In this document: one piece after another, positions 56,521 through 64,000 of the stretch
How positions within the stretch are numbered: position 1 is the first letter of the stretch
Layout of the letters: every line of letters starts with the position of its first letter
Origin: a virus
Taxonomy: Duplodnaviria > Caudoviricetes
Virus record (IMG/VR): IMGVR_UViG_3300033075_001751
Span: 32,001 to 96,000 of that record
Reading direction: 5' to 3' (one strand)
DNA length: 64,000 bases
Notes under the pieces: generated by a model
What the model saw: only the letters and a program-made list of their open reading frames with translations
What the model was told of the DNA's origin: nothing
The model's database searches: none
Position numbers and translations under genes: made by a program

Positions 56521-56599
56521 CGAATATACTTGAACAGGTTGAATTGCAATGGATTTTGAAGATTGAAAATTCAAAAATGTTTTGTACTAAGTATATTTG
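56521..56599. promoter_or_regulatory. Divergent promoter region: TATATTCG (- strand, 56521-56528) and TATATTTG (+ strand, 56592-56599)
   Basis: AT-rich strand-switch gap with TAnnTT(T/C)G elements facing each flanking gene. Confidence 0.55.
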
Positions 56600-56622
56600 A
56601 AAAGTGTATATTTATGAAATAT

Positions 56623-57030
56623 ATGAAAAAAGAACAGTTTGAAAAAGTATTGGATTTGATCAATGGAGACCCTGCCGAGAGAGCTCTTGCTTTTGAAATG
56701 ATGTCAAATTTTACATTGGGTGACATTTTTGATTTGCTCAAACGGGTTTTTATCAAAGGATTCAACTTTACATGGAAGCACTTGGGTATAGAATTAGATG
56801 CCCGGAATTGGTTTATCTTCCGTTTTTTCAATCTTCCAGAAGGTTACCATCAAAGTACTTTCCGATGGGCTTACTGGGACATCTCGACAATAAGGTGGAT
56901 CAATCAAAATCGAGATCGGAAGCCTGACAGGACTGTTCCCTTTGTCATCGGTCATGAAGGATATTGGGTGAGTCAAAATGAATTTGACGTATTTATCAAA
57001 AACAGCAATGAAAAAGGAATACCCCGTTGA
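56623..57030 (+). CDS. Paralog array member 1
   Basis: MKKEQFEKVLDLINGDPAERALAFEMM. Confidence 0.75.
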   Translation: MKKEQFEKVLDLINGDPAERALAFEMMSNFTLGDIFDLLKRVFIKGFNFTWKHLGIELDARNWFIFRFFNLPEGYHQSTFRWAYWDISTIRWINQNRDRKPDRTVPFVIGHEGYWVSQNEFDVFIKNSNEKGIPR

Positions 57031-57418
57031 TAAAATCAAAGAGATGCTGCTCAGTGAAAGTGAAGCAGAACATACCCTGGCTGTTTGCATGATCAAGCAG
57101 TACATGAAGTTGGGAGAAGCTGTAGAGGTGCTGAATGTTACCAGACCTTCCTACTCCGACAGTGATCTTTCAAGGATCTGTGTAATTCTTTCAATCTATC
57201 CGTTGCCTTACCGAATGGTAAAATGTGTTCCTTTTTGGAACGAACTTGTAATGTGGGCGGCAAAGTCTCCTAATAAAAGAGCATCCAAAAGCGATGCCAG
57301 TAAACGGTTATGTGAAAGAGCTGTTCGCCGGTTTATCAGATTACAGATCCACACTCGTGAAACAAAAGAAAGACTTCTTCGGATTGTATCACTTCCTTTA
57401 GAACCGACACATGGCTGA
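57008..57418 (+). CDS. Paralog array member 2
   Basis: MKKEYPVDKIKEMLLSESEAEHTLAVCMI. Confidence 0.75.
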   Translation: MKKEYPVDKIKEMLLSESEAEHTLAVCMIKQYMKLGEAVEVLNVTRPSYSDSDLSRICVILSIYPLPYRMVKCVPFWNELVMWAAKSPNKRASKSDASKRLCERAVRRFIRLQIHTRETKERLLRIVSLPLEPTHG

Positions 57419-57746
57419 TCCACAAAAAATAATTGAACTATTGGAATCTTCCGATCCTGACGAATGTAGGCTTGGGTTGAAACTTCATGCGCAACTTGAA
57501 TGTAAGGGAGGATTGTTGATGACAATGGCTGAGAATAGAGCTAACGCTACAATAGAGTTTGCGGAAATGTCTCTTGCTGACAGAATGAAACCGTTGCAAC
57601 ACTTCCTCAATAAGACCATGTATGGTATTGAAGACAAATTTCATACGATCATTACAGGGAAGAAAGGTCTTCAAAACATACGCGATTTACTGAAAAAGGA
57701 GATTGACAATGAAACAAGAAATACAGAAGATAATCGAGCTGATTGA
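57411..57746 (+). CDS. Paralog array member 3
   Basis: MADPQKIIELLESSDPDECRLGLKL. Confidence 0.8.
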   Translation: MADPQKIIELLESSDPDECRLGLKLHAQLECKGGLLMTMAENRANATIEFAEMSLADRMKPLQHFLNKTMYGIEDKFHTIITGKKGLQNIRDLLKKEIDNETRNTEDNRAD

Positions 57747-58203
57747 TGCTCGTAATCCTACTGACAATGCGCTTGGTAAGCTTTTGATGCAACAGCTTAC
57801 CCTTTCCGAAGCTTGGATAGTGTGCAACAACACGATCAAAGCCCGCAAGATCAATACGGTTAGGTTTCTTTTTGACATGTTCGATCCCCGGACTTATCCG
57901 TTTAACCGGAGCAAACATATCTTGCAGTGGTCCAAAATCGGTGAATGGGTTCAGGAGAATCCCGACCAGAAAGCATGTCTACGTCAAGACCGGAAATGGG
58001 ATTTGTCAACCGAAGTGAAGTATAAGGTTTGCAAAATGGTAACCAATACCCGCGAACCTCATCTTGGAGAACAGATGATTTTGGCTCAGTACGGCAAGTT
58101 TGTAAAAGAGACCCGGGATTTTTACGTGTTCGATGCAGGGAAAGATGGAGTGTTTAAAGTAGGAAGGGTTACATTGATATCTATTGATCCGGTAAAACCA
58201 TGA
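57709..58203 (+). CDS. Paralog array member 4
   Basis: MKQEIQKIIELIDARNPTDNALGKLLM. Confidence 0.8.
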   Translation: MKQEIQKIIELIDARNPTDNALGKLLMQQLTLSEAWIVCNNTIKARKINTVRFLFDMFDPRTYPFNRSKHILQWSKIGEWVQENPDQKACLRQDRKWDLSTEVKYKVCKMVTNTREPHLGEQMILAQYGKFVKETRDFYVFDAGKDGVFKVGRVTLISIDPVKP

Positions 58204-58583
58204 CAGAGCAAGAAAGAAAAATACTTGATCTGGTGTTTTCAGACGACTTGGATGAAATGGTACTCGGCGTGCAGATGCTCAAACCTTTGACCTGCAAGGA
58301 ATGTTGGTTGTTTTTGAATCACCTGTGGTTGGAGTATCCCTGGTGTTCCAAATCGGAACGAGCCAAACGAATCATCTGGTCGCTGTATCCCAACGATTTT
58401 TCAGGTGACAGCAAACTTTTACTTGATGCAATGGGATGGGATGACCAGGTAAAAACGTGGGCTTTCAAAAATCCAGATCTGAAACATGATCCTGTTTGGA
58501 AATTTTGTGTACCCGCTTGGTTGAGTCCAGATGATACTGCGGAATATAGACGATTGAGAGTCAATGTCGATATAAAAATATGA
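58200..58583 (+). CDS. Paralog array member 5
   Basis: MTEQERKILDLVFSDDLDEMVLGVQML. Confidence 0.8.
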   Translation: MTEQERKILDLVFSDDLDEMVLGVQMLKPLTCKECWLFLNHLWLEYPWCSKSERAKRIIWSLYPNDFSGDSKLLLDAMGWDDQVKTWAFKNPDLKHDPVWKFCVPAWLSPDDTAEYRRLRVNVDIKI

Positions 58584-59104
58584 TTGATACACAGAAAATT
58601 CGTGAGTTGCTGATAAGCGATTCCGAAAGCGACGTAAAACTTGGTTTGCAGATCATGGCGAATCGCGATCACACATCTGCTTTTCGAGACCACAAGCCGG
58701 AGCTGTGGTTAGCGGGTAAAAAAGATGTACTGTGCGACCGAATATTGTACGGTAAAAACGGAGTCTTTATCAATTCCTGTTTTGTCCAGTTTCATGAACA
58801 TGACGTTACTATCGGATCTGAGCCTGATTGGTGGATTGTAGAGGAACGTACCGGCAAAGTCATTGAAAAGTACGATGTTATTGATTTGCACGAAGGATAT
58901 GCTCTTAGTCATGACACTGAAATTCATCTTGACTTTTGGAGTAGAATACGAGTTTTGTTTGGAGCCAGGTTTTTTATGAAACATGAATGCAGTACCGATA
59001 AGATGGTCTGTGTGAGTAAAGGCAAGGCAACAATTACAATCGGTAAACCTAAACGAATGATTCATCAGATGGAAAGTTTCAATCAATCAGGACCACAGTC
59101 ATGA
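58580..59104 (+). CDS. Paralog array member 6
   Basis: MIDTQKIRELLISDSESDVKLGLQIM. Confidence 0.8.
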   Translation: MIDTQKIRELLISDSESDVKLGLQIMANRDHTSAFRDHKPELWLAGKKDVLCDRILYGKNGVFINSCFVQFHEHDVTIGSEPDWWIVEERTGKVIEKYDVIDLHEGYALSHDTEIHLDFWSRIRVLFGARFFMKHECSTDKMVCVSKGKATITIGKPKRMIHQMESFNQSGPQS

Positions 59105-59550
59105 AGAAAGAAGACGTTGATAAGATCATTGAAATGCTGGACTCTCGTGATACAGACCAAATCGCATTGGCAAGATTAATGCTGGAACAGGTTTTGCCGA
59201 CACTTCCTAAATTCAGTCAAGAAATGATGACGGGTCATAAAGATTGGTTGGTGATTACGGTATTTCAAGATCATAAAAAACTTTGGTGTGTTGCAAAAAA
59301 TCAGATTTGGTTTGCTGATACTAAATTAAATGATCAACCTCTCTTGTACATGGAAAAAAAACCTTATACAAATCAAGGTAATGCCCTTGAAATATATCCT
59401 GCAATAGAATTTGATGCGAGTGGAATTTGGGTGAAAAATCCAACTCGCACTGGCGATATTACAATGAAAAGTATACATCCTAAGCCTCTGCTTCAATCCC
59501 ATAGATTTACAATCTTGGATTTTTCCGAGGATAATATTACCAAGATATGA
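59101..59550 (+). CDS. Paralog array member 7
   Basis: MKKEDVDKIIEMLDSRDTDQIALARLML. Confidence 0.8.
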   Translation: MKKEDVDKIIEMLDSRDTDQIALARLMLEQVLPTLPKFSQEMMTGHKDWLVITVFQDHKKLWCVAKNQIWFADTKLNDQPLLYMEKKPYTNQGNALEIYPAIEFDASGIWVKNPTRTGDITMKSIHPKPLLQSHRFTILDFSEDNITKI

Positions 59551-59858
59551 ATGATCAATTGCAAAAGATACATGATCTTTTAGAATCAGAGAATATTGAT
59601 GAAAGAAGGTTGGGAAAACAACTAATTAGAACTTATTTACAAACTGCTGATAAGCCTGATGTGAGCATGTTGGTTGTCGGAGCAGCCTATGATGTTACAG
59701 GTGTTGTGTGGGAAAAAGGTGTAATACCTTGCATCAAAACCGCAACTAGAATATTTAAAGGATTCTCAGCAAACGGACAACTTATTACTTTCAATACTTC
59801 TGAAGGTTTTTTTGTTGATCGTATCTTATCAATTTCACCTGCATCAAGTGTTGTATGA
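59547..59858 (+). CDS. Paralog array member 8
   Basis: MNDQLQKIHDLLESENIDERRLGKQLI...LVVGAAYDV...ILSISP. Confidence 0.8.
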   Translation: MNDQLQKIHDLLESENIDERRLGKQLIRTYLQTADKPDVSMLVVGAAYDVTGVVWEKGVIPCIKTATRIFKGFSANGQLITFNTSEGFFVDRILSISPASSVV

Positions 59859-60202
59859 ACGAACAATTAGTCAAGATAGAAGAACTCTTGAGAGCAAATG
59901 AGTCTCGTGATTTGGGACAAAGATTGCTCAAGATGTACATGGATCAGATGACATTGTTGGATTTCAAGTCATTTGAGATTGGAAAGAAATACAATCTGCT
60001 TATTGGAATGAATCCTGATACATTAGGTTTCGATATTTATTGCCACCCTCTTATGCGGTTTGAGTATTACCGAAAATTCACGAACAGTGAACATGTCATG
60101 TTGACATTTACCTCACCAGATAGTAAAGTTCACTTTATACGACTGGATACTATTCTTGCTATCAAGGAAGTTCCGACTAACACATTTGTACCTATAGGAT
60201 GA
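59855..60202 (+). CDS. Paralog array member 9
   Basis: MNEQLVKIEELLRANESRDLGQRLL...FEIGKKYNL...ILAIKEVP. Confidence 0.8.
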   Translation: MNEQLVKIEELLRANESRDLGQRLLKMYMDQMTLLDFKSFEIGKKYNLLIGMNPDTLGFDIYCHPLMRFEYYRKFTNSEHVMLTFTSPDSKVHFIRLDTILAIKEVPTNTFVPIG

Positions 60203-60453
60203 AAGAGCAGCTTGACAAGATTATTGAAATGCCGTATGAACAGCGTCAACTAGCTCACGATCTGCTCAGGATTATTGTTCGTAATAATCGACCTGTTTCC
60301 ATGGGAGAGTTGTCACGCGCAAGAAGATATCGGTTTTATATGATCAGTCATAATCAAGGATTATTAACTGTTAATGTAATGGATTGTAATCCTTTTGCTC
60401 TTAGTGCCCCTTTTGGTGTAGAATGGATCATTATTCACGCAGAAGAAATATGA
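60199..60453 (+). CDS. Paralog array member 10
   Basis: MKEQLDKIIEMPYEQRQLAHDLL...IIIHAEEI. Confidence 0.75.
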   Translation: MKEQLDKIIEMPYEQRQLAHDLLRIIVRNNRPVSMGELSRARRYRFYMISHNQGLLTVNVMDCNPFALSAPFGVEWIIIHAEEI

Positions 60454-60770
60454 AAGAACAACTTGAAAAAGTAATAGAGATGCTCAATTCTTCGAATCAT
60501 AATGAGAAATTACTGGGTATTCAATTTATTGAAAACTTGAGAGCTACACTGAACTCCACTGTATTTGTACCGGTTCGATATCGTTTGTATTACATAACAT
60601 CATTTACGTTTCTTAGACAGCATAGCGGTAAAGACTACGATCAAACGATATTGGCGGTGAGCTGTACAGAAGCTCAATGGTCTGGATGGAAGACAAGTTC
60701 CCTTACAGGAGATCGTGAACCTATTTTTAATACAACTGTAACCGGTGTCATAGCCGCAGAAAGAATATGA
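60450..60770 (+). CDS. Paralog array member 11
   Basis: MKEQLEKVIEMLNSSNHNEKLLGIQFI...VIAAERI. Confidence 0.8.
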   Translation: MKEQLEKVIEMLNSSNHNEKLLGIQFIENLRATLNSTVFVPVRYRLYYITSFTFLRQHSGKDYDQTILAVSCTEAQWSGWKTSSLTGDREPIFNTTVTGVIAAERI

Positions 60771-61087
60771 AAGAAGAGTTTGTCAAGATATCTGAACTAC
60801 TGCGTTCTAAAAATGTTGCAGATGTAGAGTTAGCCTGGCTTTTGATCAACAATTATACTGCTGCTCATCGTCCCTCGGCTATCTCTTTGGAAGAAGATAA
60901 ATCTTATCTTATTACTCGGGCAAGCATGGAAGGAAAAATATATCGCGATGAACAGATTTACAAAAGTCGAGAAAAGCTCAATTTCGTAAATGTGCTTCAT
61001 ATAATAAACCCTTCTTCTAATACACACTGGTACATTAGAGAGCACTGGATACTGGAAATCGTACCTCATGATTTGGAAACACAATGA
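60767..61087 (+). CDS. Paralog array member 12
   Basis: MKEEFVKISELLRSKNVADVELAWLLI...LEEDKSYLI...ILEIVP. Confidence 0.8.
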   Translation: MKEEFVKISELLRSKNVADVELAWLLINNYTAAHRPSAISLEEDKSYLITRASMEGKIYRDEQIYKSREKLNFVNVLHIINPSSNTHWYIREHWILEIVPHDLETQ

Positions 61088-61548
61088 AAGAACAATTTAA
61101 AAAAATAGAAGAGCTGCTTCGATCTGAAGATATTAACTCAAGACAACTTGGGAGACAAATGATAAGAAATTATCGAGCCGAATATCCTCTTTTAGAACTA
61201 AAAGTAGGAAAAAGATACAACATTGTTTGGGTTAGTGGTCAATACAGACCTAATTTACAAAGTATGGATAGGCTGACTTTCAGTTCTACGGTTTGCGATC
61301 CTTCGACACACTGGAATAAGGTTGTATGTTTTACCGACGTTCATAGAGGAGTACACAAGTTTTTATTGAGTTCACTCTTAGATATCACTCATGAAAGAAG
61401 AATTCAAAAAAAATGGATGATCTGCTTCAGTCCCGAGATCCTTCCGAAAGGGGGTTGGGATTGCAATTGGTCCGGAGCTACATCCAAGAAAACAAGCCTT
61501 GTAATGTCAATCTTGAGAAAGGCAAGAACTACAAGGTCACCTGGCTAA
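61084..61548 (+). CDS. Paralog array member 13 (C-terminal extension probably caused by the A8 slip; would otherwise end at ~61420)
   Basis: MKEQFKKIEELLRSEDINSRQLGRQMI...LKVGKRYNI...LLDITH. Confidence 0.75.
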   Translation: MKEQFKKIEELLRSEDINSRQLGRQMIRNYRAEYPLLELKVGKRYNIVWVSGQYRPNLQSMDRLTFSSTVCDPSTHWNKVVCFTDVHRGVHKFLLSSLLDITHERRIQKKWMICFSPEILPKGGWDCNWSGATSKKTSLVMSILRKARTTRSPG

Positions 61549-61706
61549 GAGAGATGGGCTCGTTGAAAAACATAATTCAATATACCCAAATAGACTTTGA
61601 AGGAAGATTTACCCATTATGAGCAAACTCGTAGGAAATATAGAGTCTTGCGATTCATGAATACCAGTATCCGTTCTGATGATGTACTTGAAATTGTACCG
61701 GTATGA
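61391..61706 (+). pseudogene. Paralog array member 14, frameshifted at A8 (61406-61413); in-frame restart possible at 61413
   Basis: ATG at 61391 reads MKEEFKKNG*. Removing one A gives MKEEFKKMDDLLQSRDPSERGLGLQL, which fits the consensus. Confidence 0.7.
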
Positions 61707-62008
61707 ACCAAGAGATGATAGACAAGATCAACGAAATGCTCGGCTCAAAAAACAAATCAGAAGTGGAACTTGGTCGGCAAATGATTCGAACCTGGGTAGA
61801 AGAGAACCAACCCTGCAACGTACCGTTGGTGGAAGGTCAAAAGTATCTCGTTACCTACTTGAGTATGGATCGATGGATAGAAAGATATGCATTTAGATTC
61901 AAAAGAAGGGTCTGGGAATGGTATCAACAACAGGAAAAAGCCATGCTCCAGTTTGAATACAATACTCAAATCTCGGTAAACAGGATTGTGAAAATTGTAC
62001 CAGTTTAA
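61703..62008 (+). CDS. Paralog array member 15
   Basis: MNQEMIDKINEMLGSKNKSEVELGRQMI...LVEGQKYLV...IVKIVPV. Confidence 0.8.
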   Translation: MNQEMIDKINEMLGSKNKSEVELGRQMIRTWVEENQPCNVPLVEGQKYLVTYLSMDRWIERYAFRFKRRVWEWYQQQEKAMLQFEYNTQISVNRIVKIVPV

Positions 62009-62018
62009 ACGCAAAACA

Positions 62019-62330
62019 ATGAAAGAAGAATTCATTAAGATGAAAGAGATGTTGTTGTCCGGTGATCCCGAAACGATAAGTCTGGGCAAGCAGTTGATCG
62101 CAAATCATATCCGTAGACGCAAGCTCATGAAATTGGAGGAAGGAGTAACTTACATGTTCACCTGGTGGAATGAGTTTACCGGCATCTATTGTCGTGAAAA
62201 GCTTTATCTCGGAGAGTACGCAGGTCTCGGACCAAGACGAATAAGGTTGCAAAGCTTCATGGCGGAAACCACATTGAAAAGAGAGTTAATTTTGGATGTC
62301 GTAACAATTGACGAGTTTAACGAAACGTAA
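62019..62330 (+). CDS. Paralog array member 16
   Basis: MKEEFIKMKEMLLSGDPETISLGKQLI...LEEGVTYMF...ILDVVT. Confidence 0.8.
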   Translation: MKEEFIKMKEMLLSGDPETISLGKQLIANHIRRRKLMKLEEGVTYMFTWWNEFTGIYCREKLYLGEYAGLGPRRIRLQSFMAETTLKRELILDVVTIDEFNET

Positions 62331-62331
62331 A

Positions 62332-62637
62332 ATGAAAACAGAGCTACTCAAAATAAAACAGTTGTTTGAATCAGACAATCCCGATGATCAAGAATTGGCT
62401 ATAGTGATATCCAAGAGATACATCCAGATAAATCAGCCGGCAGAGAAAGAGTTGGAAATAGGTAAAAAGTACATCGTTACTTTCATGAGCCAACTTGAGA
62501 AAACAGTAAAGCAATACGAAGAGCTTTTTGAAGGTATGATAACGTCTAATGGAATGGAACTCTTCAACTGGAACAACCCAGATTTTGGAAGAATACGACT
62601 TGCAAAATGGAGGATCTTGGACATTTCACCAATTTAA
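62332..62637 (+). CDS. Paralog array member 17
   Basis: MKTELLKIKQLFESDNPDDQELAIVI...LEIGKKYIV...ILDISPI. Confidence 0.8.
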   Translation: MKTELLKIKQLFESDNPDDQELAIVISKRYIQINQPAEKELEIGKKYIVTFMSQLEKTVKQYEELFEGMITSNGMELFNWNNPDFGRIRLAKWRILDISPI

Positions 62638-62642
62638 ACGCA

Positions 62643-62822
62643 ATGAAGGAAAACAAAAAGAAACCGCTGTGTACGATATGCGATGATAAAGGATGGATAT
62701 GGGAGCATCGCTACTCTAGTATAAGTAAACCTTGTCCCTGTTGTCACCATGGAGTACCAAACGTATGGAAGGAGATCAGGATAGCGCAGATTCTCACCGG
62801 TTTGAAATTTCCAAAATTGTAA
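62643..62822 (+). CDS. Small zinc-finger protein
   Basis: CTICDDKGW...PCPCC. Confidence 0.65.
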   Translation: MKENKKKPLCTICDDKGWIWEHRYSSISKPCPCCHHGVPNVWKEIRIAQILTGLKFPKL

Positions 62823-62958
62823 AAAATTTTGGGGATGAAATTTTAGAGTGTGTTTCTGTCTCTGTGGAGTCTTCCATTGCACCTCCCCCGCCTCTCCGAA
62901 AATCCGAACCACCCCCGGTCAAGTTATGAACCCCTTTACGAATTGAAAAGCATGTCTT

Positions 62959-63150
62959 ATGGATAATTTCTTTGTATCATTCATGATGTTCATTACAGCG
63001 TTCTTCTTGGTATGTGCGATCATCTTCGTTCATATCATCCAGACTCATGATCTTATCTCTCACATTTTGTTGGGAGTGTTTGGTCTCATGATGTCTATTG
63101 CATTAATGGGCATTAGCACCTTTGCAATCGAGGAGGAAATGGGGCATTAG
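62959..63150 (+). CDS. Small two-TM membrane protein
   Basis: Two hydrophobic helices and an acidic tail. Confidence 0.6.
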   Translation: MDNFFVSFMMFITAFFLVCAIIFVHIIQTHDLISHILLGVFGLMMSIALMGISTFAIEEEMGH

Positions 63151-63194
63151 CCCCTATTCCTTTGAATCGCATGAGAGAACCCCTTTCAAAGCGC

Positions 63195-63383
63195 ATGGAA
63201 ACAACTACGTGTGTGAATCCACGCTACAAGGTAGTGATGGAGATTGTCAAACCTGAAGGTTTGAAGGATATGCAAGCCAAGATCAACCAATGGATCACAA
63301 CCAAGCAGTTGGTCAAGGTTGAGACTCAGCCCATGTTCGATGGTTCGATCTTCTTTAAGATCATCCAACTGAAGCAGGAGTGA
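63195..63383 (+). CDS. Hypothetical protein (62 aa)
   Basis: ATG 3 nt after the AACCCCTTTCAAAG repeat; METTTCVNPRY... Confidence 0.65.
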   Translation: METTTCVNPRYKVVMEIVKPEGLKDMQAKINQWITTKQLVKVETQPMFDGSIFFKIIQLKQE

Positions 63384-63446
63384 TCCTACTTCTTTGTATC
63401 GAACAAAACCCCTTTGTGAGGTTGCGCAAAATAACGCGCTAGAAAT

Positions 63447-63632
63447 ATGGAATACGCTGTATGGTACACATGTGTGACAATGATGCATCCAAGAGGACGC
63501 ACCAATAGGACTTATTTTCGTTGGTCTGAGGCATTCGGAAGACCTGTTGCGGTCACCAGAATGACTGAAAAGGAATACAACAAGGTTCCTTATGAGTCAG
63601 GTATGCTCAAGAAAACACTGTATGTGAATTAA
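63447..63632 (+). CDS. Hypothetical protein (61 aa)
   Basis: ORF between two copies of the repeat. Confidence 0.55.
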   Translation: MEYAVWYTCVTMMHPRGRTNRTYFRWSEAFGRPVAVTRMTEKEYNKVPYESGMLKKTLYVN

Positions 63633-63687
63633 GATAAGGGCGTTTGCCCCTATTCTTTACCATCGTAAAAAACCCCTTTCAAAGACC

Positions 63688-63801
63688 ATGAAAAAGATCA
63701 TTCTGATTGTCATTGCCCTGGTGGGTAGTGCAGTCCTTGCTCAATACTTGTCGTCGACCATCGTCCGACATGATCTCACCATCTATCACAACATGAAATG
63801 A
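63688..63801 (+). CDS. Small single-TM/signal-like peptide (37 aa)
   Basis: MKKIILIVIALVGSAVLAQYLSSTIVRHDLTIYHNMK; ATG 3 nt after AACCCCTTTCAAAG; below the ORF-track length cutoff. Confidence 0.55.
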   Translation: MKKIILIVIALVGSAVLAQYLSSTIVRHDLTIYHNMK

Positions 63802-64000
63802 AGTTCGATCCATGGGGTACCACCGGAGCTCTGATTACGATCGGAGCTGTGCTGGTCGCAGTCATTCTGGCTGTCTTGCAGAGTTGAGTACCTTCGGGTA
63901 TTCCTCTTTGTATCGTAACAATTCCTAGGTAAGTTCGATACGGAGATATGTCCGTCGAGACAACCCCTTTTCAATCTTGTAAGTTTTCCGAAAGGGACAC

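Follow-up and report, generated by a model that had tools for sequence, protein, structure and literature searches.

A tandem array of small hairpin proteins is the largest block of a phage-specific gene family in a genome with crAss-type markers

The virus DNA analysed here, a stretch of 64,000 nucleotides that we call the window (bases 32001-96000 of the 133,958-bp record IMGVR_UViG_3300033075_001751, which is rated complete), carries at positions 56623-62637 a tandem array of 17 plus-strand genes whose small, probably cytoplasmic products begin with the same N-terminal two-helix hairpin of about 34 residues and differ strongly in what follows. The array belongs to a phage-specific multigene family, of which it is the largest block. 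The family has 35 copies or more, and about a fifth of the genes of a distant crAss-like phage thus belong to a single undescribed family; a literature search found no description of such a family. The family would have been born by repeated tandem duplication, each member keeping the hairpin while its C-terminal part diverged fast, and eight distal members are predicted to carry a WYL/Sm-like five-stranded barrel without a helix-turn-helix (HTH) and without an effector domain. We favour, tentatively, the reading that these proteins are a diversifying family of small binders used in host takeover or anti-defence. Few viruses of Bacteroidota are as abundant as the crAss-like phages, whose non-structural genes mostly lack a known role.

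Seventeen coupled genes and their shared N-terminal hairpin

An earlier note on this DNA had reported 17 consecutive plus-strand genes of 84-174 amino acids (aa) that begin with one constant N-terminal motif, and we found every one of these open reading frames (ORFs) in place, with a shared motif that reads roughly KIxELLxSxDxxxxxLGxxhL. We used a hidden Markov model (HMM) of the first 34 residues, in leave-one-out fashion, to compare the members with 200 shuffles of each member's own N-terminus, a comparison that the same note had proposed: the members scored 12.8-48.7 bits, whereas the best of 200 shuffles did not exceed 9.9. With the full HMM the 17 members scored 34-58 bits, and the next best among the 729 six-frame ORFs of the window reached 3.9 bits. 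The leave-one-out scores and the specificity across the window confirm that all 17 genes start with one and the same motif.

The conservation of this motif reflects selection on the protein and not on the RNA. One lysine is invariant in 53/53 family sequences, and in the array it is encoded by AAA nine times and by AAG eight times; the leucines use all six of their codons, and the synonymous codons of the conserved K, I and L are scrambled across the array. Identity in the core block is 0.37 at the third codon position compared to 0.66 at positions 1 and 2, and the two closest ortholog pairs have ratios of nonsynonymous to synonymous substitution (dN/dS) of 0.12 and 0.17. Conservation of the 5' coding block at the RNA level for translational coupling, which we had considered as an explanation of the motif, was ruled out by this codon analysis. 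In ortholog pairs, identity was usually higher in the hairpin (0.42-0.76) than in the rest of the protein (0.27-0.59).

The junctions between the genes are as tight as had been described. Exactly ten of them are ATGA overlaps, and the remainder consists of overlaps of 8, 23 and 38 nt, gaps of 1 and 10 nt, and an apparent 136-nt overlap between the thirteenth and fourteenth genes (g13 and g14), which is due to a homopolymer tract described below. No convincing internal terminator was seen within the array and, given the ten ATGA overlaps as well, the array would be expressed as one translationally coupled operon, divergent from the virion module. The single TAnnTTTG element previously noted upstream, TATATTTG, lies on the plus strand at 56592-56599, 14-23 nt before the first ATG, and resembles a Bacteroidota-type -7 element. 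We regard it only as a plausible operon promoter, because the window shows no enrichment of the TAnnTTTG pattern (33 found versus 49 expected by chance).

Searches of Pfam, PHROGs and NCBIfam with the array and dispersed members yielded no family. The best PHROGs match, to phrog_527 (unknown function), was obtained for one member only (E 1e-4), NCBIfam gave nothing below E 0.02, and neither catalytic nor DNA-binding families were found among the members in these three collections. Matches of the N-terminal and full profiles to PDB sequences were at chance level, and longer or fused forms of the family were looked for and not found. These results bear out the earlier impression of an unrecognised family, since the array does not map to any characterised one. 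A resemblance between the hairpin and the N-terminal domain of L7/L12 was also considered and dropped, as there was no such Pfam match.

Copies, relatives and genome context

A search of the whole genome with the family profile first, and then with the iterated N-terminal HMM, turned up 35 motif copies at E <0.001 plus three with weaker scores. Approximately 18-21 motif genes lie outside the array, giving 35-38 of about 179 ORFs, which corrects the picture of a motif limited to the array. The extra copies, all outside the window, form mini-arrays at genome positions 7.2-9.0, 110.9-114.2, 119.3-120.6 and 124.3-125.7 kb in addition to singletons (L005:7161-8982, L005:11526-12578, L007:11034-18161, L008:3334-4603, L008:8333-9698 and L008:14250-14567), and all are on the plus strand bar one weak case. 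One gene contains two motif copies, and one 350-aa ORF carries the motif internally at about residue 213. The dispersed members sit amid replication- and repair-type genes, including a PD-(D/E)XK nuclease, a C5 methylase, a WGR-ligase and an SNF2 helicase. A mini-array of five genes lies directly upstream of a DUF2201 gene (metallopeptidase-like and VWA-like) and a MoxR-like AAA ATPase gene (L005:8988-11526), a pair that is a possible candidate for a hub, and the motif is internal in the gene that follows this pair.

Beyond this genome the family is rare. The family profile matched 15 proteins in 5.8 billion sequences, and a 38-position hairpin profile gave 47 matches in 1.84 billion representatives, almost all of them small ORFans; about 43 of the 47 are 73-222 aa long with the motif at residue 1, and the others are repeat or low-complexity proteins. 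The 34-residue hairpin is thereby a very specific marker, useful for finding such arrays in metagenomes. Metagenome scans with the first array protein (g01) as query returned no match, and one 9-kb IMG/VR relative found via TerL had no motif ORFs.

The arrays and the copy-number variation for which the earlier note had recommended a search do exist. A 44-kb contig of a sister phage (L009) has the same layout of terminase, small genes and a divergent array, here of 19 members, and the two arrays have nine colinear ortholog groups, with several slots not common to both. On another contig (L013), genes resembling g08, g09 and g11 are adjacent and g10 is missing. A third contig (L014:187-2206, 28% GC) consists entirely of 8-9 overlapping tandem genes for proteins of 93-101 aa with a related start motif (M..ELI/LL.S.D.E...LG.KLL), and is an independent array in another, AT-rich lineage. 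The sole clearly cellular carrier found was a bacterial (Cytophagales-like) protein of 222 aa (L012:10001-10669), which joins the same N-terminal motif to DUF6272. Together, the ortholog, dN/dS and array comparisons show that the duplications are old, that each member is under purifying selection and that members are still being gained and lost, in support of birth-and-death evolution of the family.

Several further observations were made on these contigs. The sister array includes an in-frame fusion of two members that lacks an intervening stop (L009:13889-14620), and elsewhere it is broken by an ORF of 85 aa that does not carry the motif (L009:15912-16169). The terminase of the sister phage (L009:2298-5546, 1082 aa) contains homing-endonuclease/Hint domains, indicating an intein, and these are absent from the terminase in the window (728 aa). 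The contig with the bacterial carrier also has LRR, CHAT, nSTAND-like and bpMoxR genes.

The array begins about 100 nt past the last gene of a minus-strand block and in the opposite orientation. This block encodes a crAss-type major capsid protein (PF23898, E 3.6e-28), a portal protein (phrog_6547, E 8e-87), the large terminase (phrog_6681, E 2e-51) and giant ORFs, the largest of 3480 aa. A phage GenBank collection held no similar phage by DNA or protein and, because of this and of the crAss-type markers, the genome is that of a distant crAss-like phage. At the other end of the array, the operon appears to be closed by a plus-strand ORF of 71 aa (62607-62822) that has two CxxC pairs, is zinc-ribbon-like and lacks the family motif; its first 31 nt overlap g17. 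Further downstream (62929-64000 of the window) the layout shifts to short units with hairpins between them.

Fold of the C-terminal parts

The contrast drawn in the earlier note between a constant hairpin and strongly diverged C-terminal domains was partly right: the hairpin is constant and most C-termini are unrelated, but eight members share a barrel. A barrel HMM recognises only these eight distal members (g08, g09 and g12-g17), and the other C-termini showed no mutual similarity by BLAST and hhalign beyond the barrel class and the ortholog pairs. One member of the class, g15 (61703-62008, 101 aa), gave a confident AlphaFold2 model from a 21-sequence alignment, with a mean predicted local distance difference test score (pLDDT) of 93.6 and a predicted template modelling score (pTM) of 0.80. 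The model comprises a helical hairpin, in which helices 3-13 and 18-35 are antiparallel (pLDDT >90), followed by a barrel of five strands at residues 47-100. The model of g04, made with four orthologs, had a pLDDT of 54.8 and was too poor for a fold search; its hairpin is the same, with a pLDDT of about 75-79.

Exhaustive structure alignment of the g15 model against the PDB placed WYL domains at the top, the best being BrxR (7qfz; Z 7.8, root-mean-square deviation 2.0 over 63 residues), with further WYL matches to PafBC, CapW and DriD at Z 7.1-7.6 (6sj9, 9c5g, 7t8k and 8tp8, Z 7.2-7.6). Designed SH3 barrels and Hfq/Sm proteins came next in the ranking at Z of about 6. In the ESM Atlas, g15 matched the WYL regions of PIF1-WYL helicases and stand-alone WYL proteins with template modelling (TM) scores of 0.68-0.71 over 86-97 residues, the hairpin included. 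Foldseek searches of the PDB and BFVD with g15 gave no match at E <=0.001, and for g06 the ESM Atlas gave no model and no match. For a profile comparison by hhalign, we also drew on five Bacteroidota genomes, which supplied 14 true WYL regions. The phage profile (A4) aligned to these regions weakly, with a score of 24.5 (P 0.0012, probability 19%) over 97 colinear columns, of which the register in mid-alignment is doubtful, compared to 13 for the reversed controls and at most 18.5 for 40 block-shuffles. A likeness of the hairpin to a "KIK.vL" pattern at host WYL loci was rejected as not significant alone (hhalign 14.4 against 12.5 for the reversed control).

The combined models and alignments indicate that the distal eight-member class is probably WYL/Sm-like in fold, and that it is possibly, though not demonstrably, derived from WYL domains. 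They also speak for the hairpin being an integral structural element, at least in the barrel class, because it sits in a compact predicted fold that resembles WYL units as a whole.

The individual members are as follows, all on the plus strand. The first, g01 (56623-57030, 135 aa, with an alternative ATG at 56614), combines the hairpin with a distinct C-terminal domain and has an ortholog, P0015/r01, with 59% identity. It is followed by g02 (57008-57418, 136 aa; orthologs P0009, P0011 and r02), g03 (57411-57746, 111 aa; ortholog r03) and g04 (57709-58203, 164 aa), in which the low-confidence model suggests extra helices after the hairpin and a probable C-terminal barrel (hhalign to the barrel class, E 0.006). 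Next come g05 (58200-58583, 127 aa), g06 (58580-59104, 174 aa; orthologs r07, P0063 and P0064) and g07 (59101-59550, 149 aa; orthologs r08 and P0046). The first two genes of the barrel class, g08 (59547-59858, 103 aa) and g09 (59855-60202, 115 aa; dN/dS 0.12 versus L013), precede g10 (60199-60453, 84 aa), which has a shortened motif loop and no counterpart in the relative L013, and g11 (60450-60770, 106 aa; ortholog r15/P0018, dN/dS 0.17). The barrel class resumes with g12 (60767-61087, 106 aa) and, beyond the modelled g15, ends with g16 (62019-62330, 103 aa) and g17 (62332-62637, 101 aa), the last member.

The two barrel-class genes in between, g13 (61084-61548, 154 aa as read) and g14 (61413-61706, 97 aa from an internal ATG), are affected by a tract of eight A (61406-61413). 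The tract lengthens g13 by about 43 codons and truncates g14, leaving a stub of nine codons (61391-61420) that keeps the normal family start; with 7 A, g13 would have about 110 aa. The orthologs P0017 and P0020 have an intact, uninterrupted start, as 7 A would give here. Either the assembly is wrong at this tract or the length truly varies.

Possible roles of the family and comparison with known systems

In the binder reading that we tentatively favour, the members would be non-enzymatic proteins that bind a ligand, nucleic acid or protein, and they may serve to take over the host or to counter its defences, for instance as sponges for the signals or partners of host WYL-type sensors; duplication and divergence would widen the set of targets. 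The predicted WYL-like barrel suggests binding of a ligand or of single-stranded nucleic acid, and the members range in isoelectric point from 4.9 to 9.8, which fits varied targets. According to the titles of the solved structures, with background in PMC13622015, bacterial BREX, CBASS and DNA-damage regulons are under the control of WYL sensors, and this makes decoy or sponge action an attractive idea. The modular plan, the purifying selection and the rapid gain and loss are together the pattern expected of genes at a phage-host interface, and the WYL likeness poses the testable question of whether the ligand-sensing switch behind many bacterial defence systems is a target of phage interference.

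Several points weigh against this reading. The WYL likeness comes from one confident model and mid-range Z scores below 8, a level often reached by small barrels; the Pfam WYL model matches nothing in the genome at E 10, nor any single member at E <=1; and the N-terminal profile alone misses the helix upstream of host WYL barrels. The models and searches gave no confident fold for the C-terminal parts of nine array members and of most dispersed members, the g04 model being poor. What the data show is the family with its selection, fold and spread; a role in binding, the timing of expression and the anti-defence function are what we infer. Finally, the invariant lysine of the hairpin could mean a shared partner, which would better fit a docking tag.

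Such a tag, in which the hairpin would be a constant handle delivering different C-terminal modules to one hub (host RNA polymerase, a protease or chaperone like the phage MoxR-type AAA/VWA pair, or a phage scaffold), seems to us rather unlikely. It would account for the hairpin being the sole element common to all of the at least 35 members, on unrelated C-termini, for the lysine that never varies and for the higher conservation of the hairpin in most ortholog pairs, and the mini-array directly upstream of the DUF2201/VWA and MoxR-like AAA genes, followed by a gene with an internal motif, is in line with it. However, nothing that could serve as the hub has been found, nor is any cellular or phage protein known to have a matching receptor, and the g15 model, in which the hairpin and barrel form one compact fold that superposes as a whole on WYL proteins, leaves no free tag there. 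More specific versions of the binder and tag ideas are, in our view, improbable: the array could be a library of sensor decoys, with HTH-less WYL sensing units and other cargo titrating the single-stranded DNA (ssDNA) or nucleotide signals, or the subunits, of host WYL regulators that switch on BREX, CBASS and comparable defences, or the hairpin could be a universal docking handle for a single hub. If either were true, a fifth of the phage genes would embody a new counter-defence principle built on a modular, expandable array.

We also consider it unlikely that the family members are the phage's own regulators, that is, Sm/Hfq- or WYL-type nucleic-acid binders or ligand sensors tuning phage transcription, translation or replication. 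The likeness of the barrel to Hfq/Sm and to the ssDNA-binding WYL domains of DriD and CapW, and the position of dispersed members amid replication and repair genes, would suit this role, but 35 paralogs far exceed the needs of a regulatory circuit, the spread of net charge from -9 to +8 with its many acidic members fits poorly, and so does the rapid turnover between sister phages. Tight ATGA coupling could instead supply equimolar subunits that join via their hairpins into one large hetero-oligomer, or a solenoid assembled in trans, and oligomerisation is frequent among helical hairpins and Sm-type barrels. The differences in copy number and membership seen between close relatives would be incompatible with a fixed complex, ATGA overlaps are common in compact phage operons, and many members lie outside the array, all of which makes this explanation very unlikely. 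The hairpin as a packaging or ejection signal for virion cargo, like the capsid-targeting sequence of T4 internal proteins, is the explanation to which we give the least credence. A constant N-terminal segment on diverse small proteins is formally similar, and crAss-like virions do carry cargo proteins; yet the genes lie on the strand opposite to the structural module, behind a host-type promoter-like element and amid replication-type genes, and a folded 34-residue hairpin integrated with a barrel is unlike a short cleavable signal.

Comparison with known systems shows partial likenesses in several directions. The earlier note had seen in the hairpin a HEAT-like, alpha-solenoid repeat, and this was not supported beyond the helical hairpin as such. 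A helix-turn-helix hairpin with an LLxSxD-like turn is indeed common to HEAT or HEAT_PBS repeats and the phage proteins, but the latter have a single hairpin in place of a tandem solenoid, only one phage gene holding two motif copies, and the Pfam models HEAT, HEAT_2, HEAT_EZ and HEAT_PBS gave no match at E <=1 for the 17 members or at E <=0.1 for 20 dispersed ones. One NACHT-HEAT protein among the 1.84 billion representatives matches the hairpin profile repeatedly, over only 13 profile positions (5-17). The distance from LL to LG in the phage hairpin is probably also shorter than in HEAT_PBS. YolD-like proteins (PF08863) are another partial likeness: the Atlas model of g08 superposes on YolD-like clusters with a TM score of about 0.6 over 77-86 residues, a low score, with neither a sequence match nor a Y-family polymerase in the neighbourhood. 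The T4-type capsid-targeting proteins have a short N-terminal signal cut by the prohead protease and are encoded with or near the head genes; the genes of the present family lie on the strand opposite to the structural module.

In its organisation, the family recalls the ankyrin, BTB and F-box families of giant viruses and poxviruses and the accessory arrays of large phages, in which tandem paralogs likewise combine a constant module with a variable part and turn over fast. It differs from the giant virus and poxvirus families in that the constant module is an undescribed 34-residue hairpin, the host is bacterial and no hub such as a ubiquitin ligase is known. With Sm/Hfq proteins the barrel class has in common a small, bent five-stranded barrel after an N-terminal helix; the comparison is by fold alone, no sequence relation having been found, and the phage proteins have two helices before the barrel instead of one. 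The closest likeness is to the WYL domain (PF13280), which gave the best structural matches in both the PDB and the Atlas and is also a five-stranded Sm-like barrel preceded by helices. Compared to WYL regulators of the BrxR/CapW/PafBC type, the phage proteins lack the winged HTH and the WCX domain, with about 100 aa in the barrel class and 84-174 aa across the array, and they have two helices before the barrel where the sampled Bacteroidota WYL regulators have three helical segments. The WYL regulators are single genes beside defence operons, whereas the phage proteins are encoded in tandem arrays.

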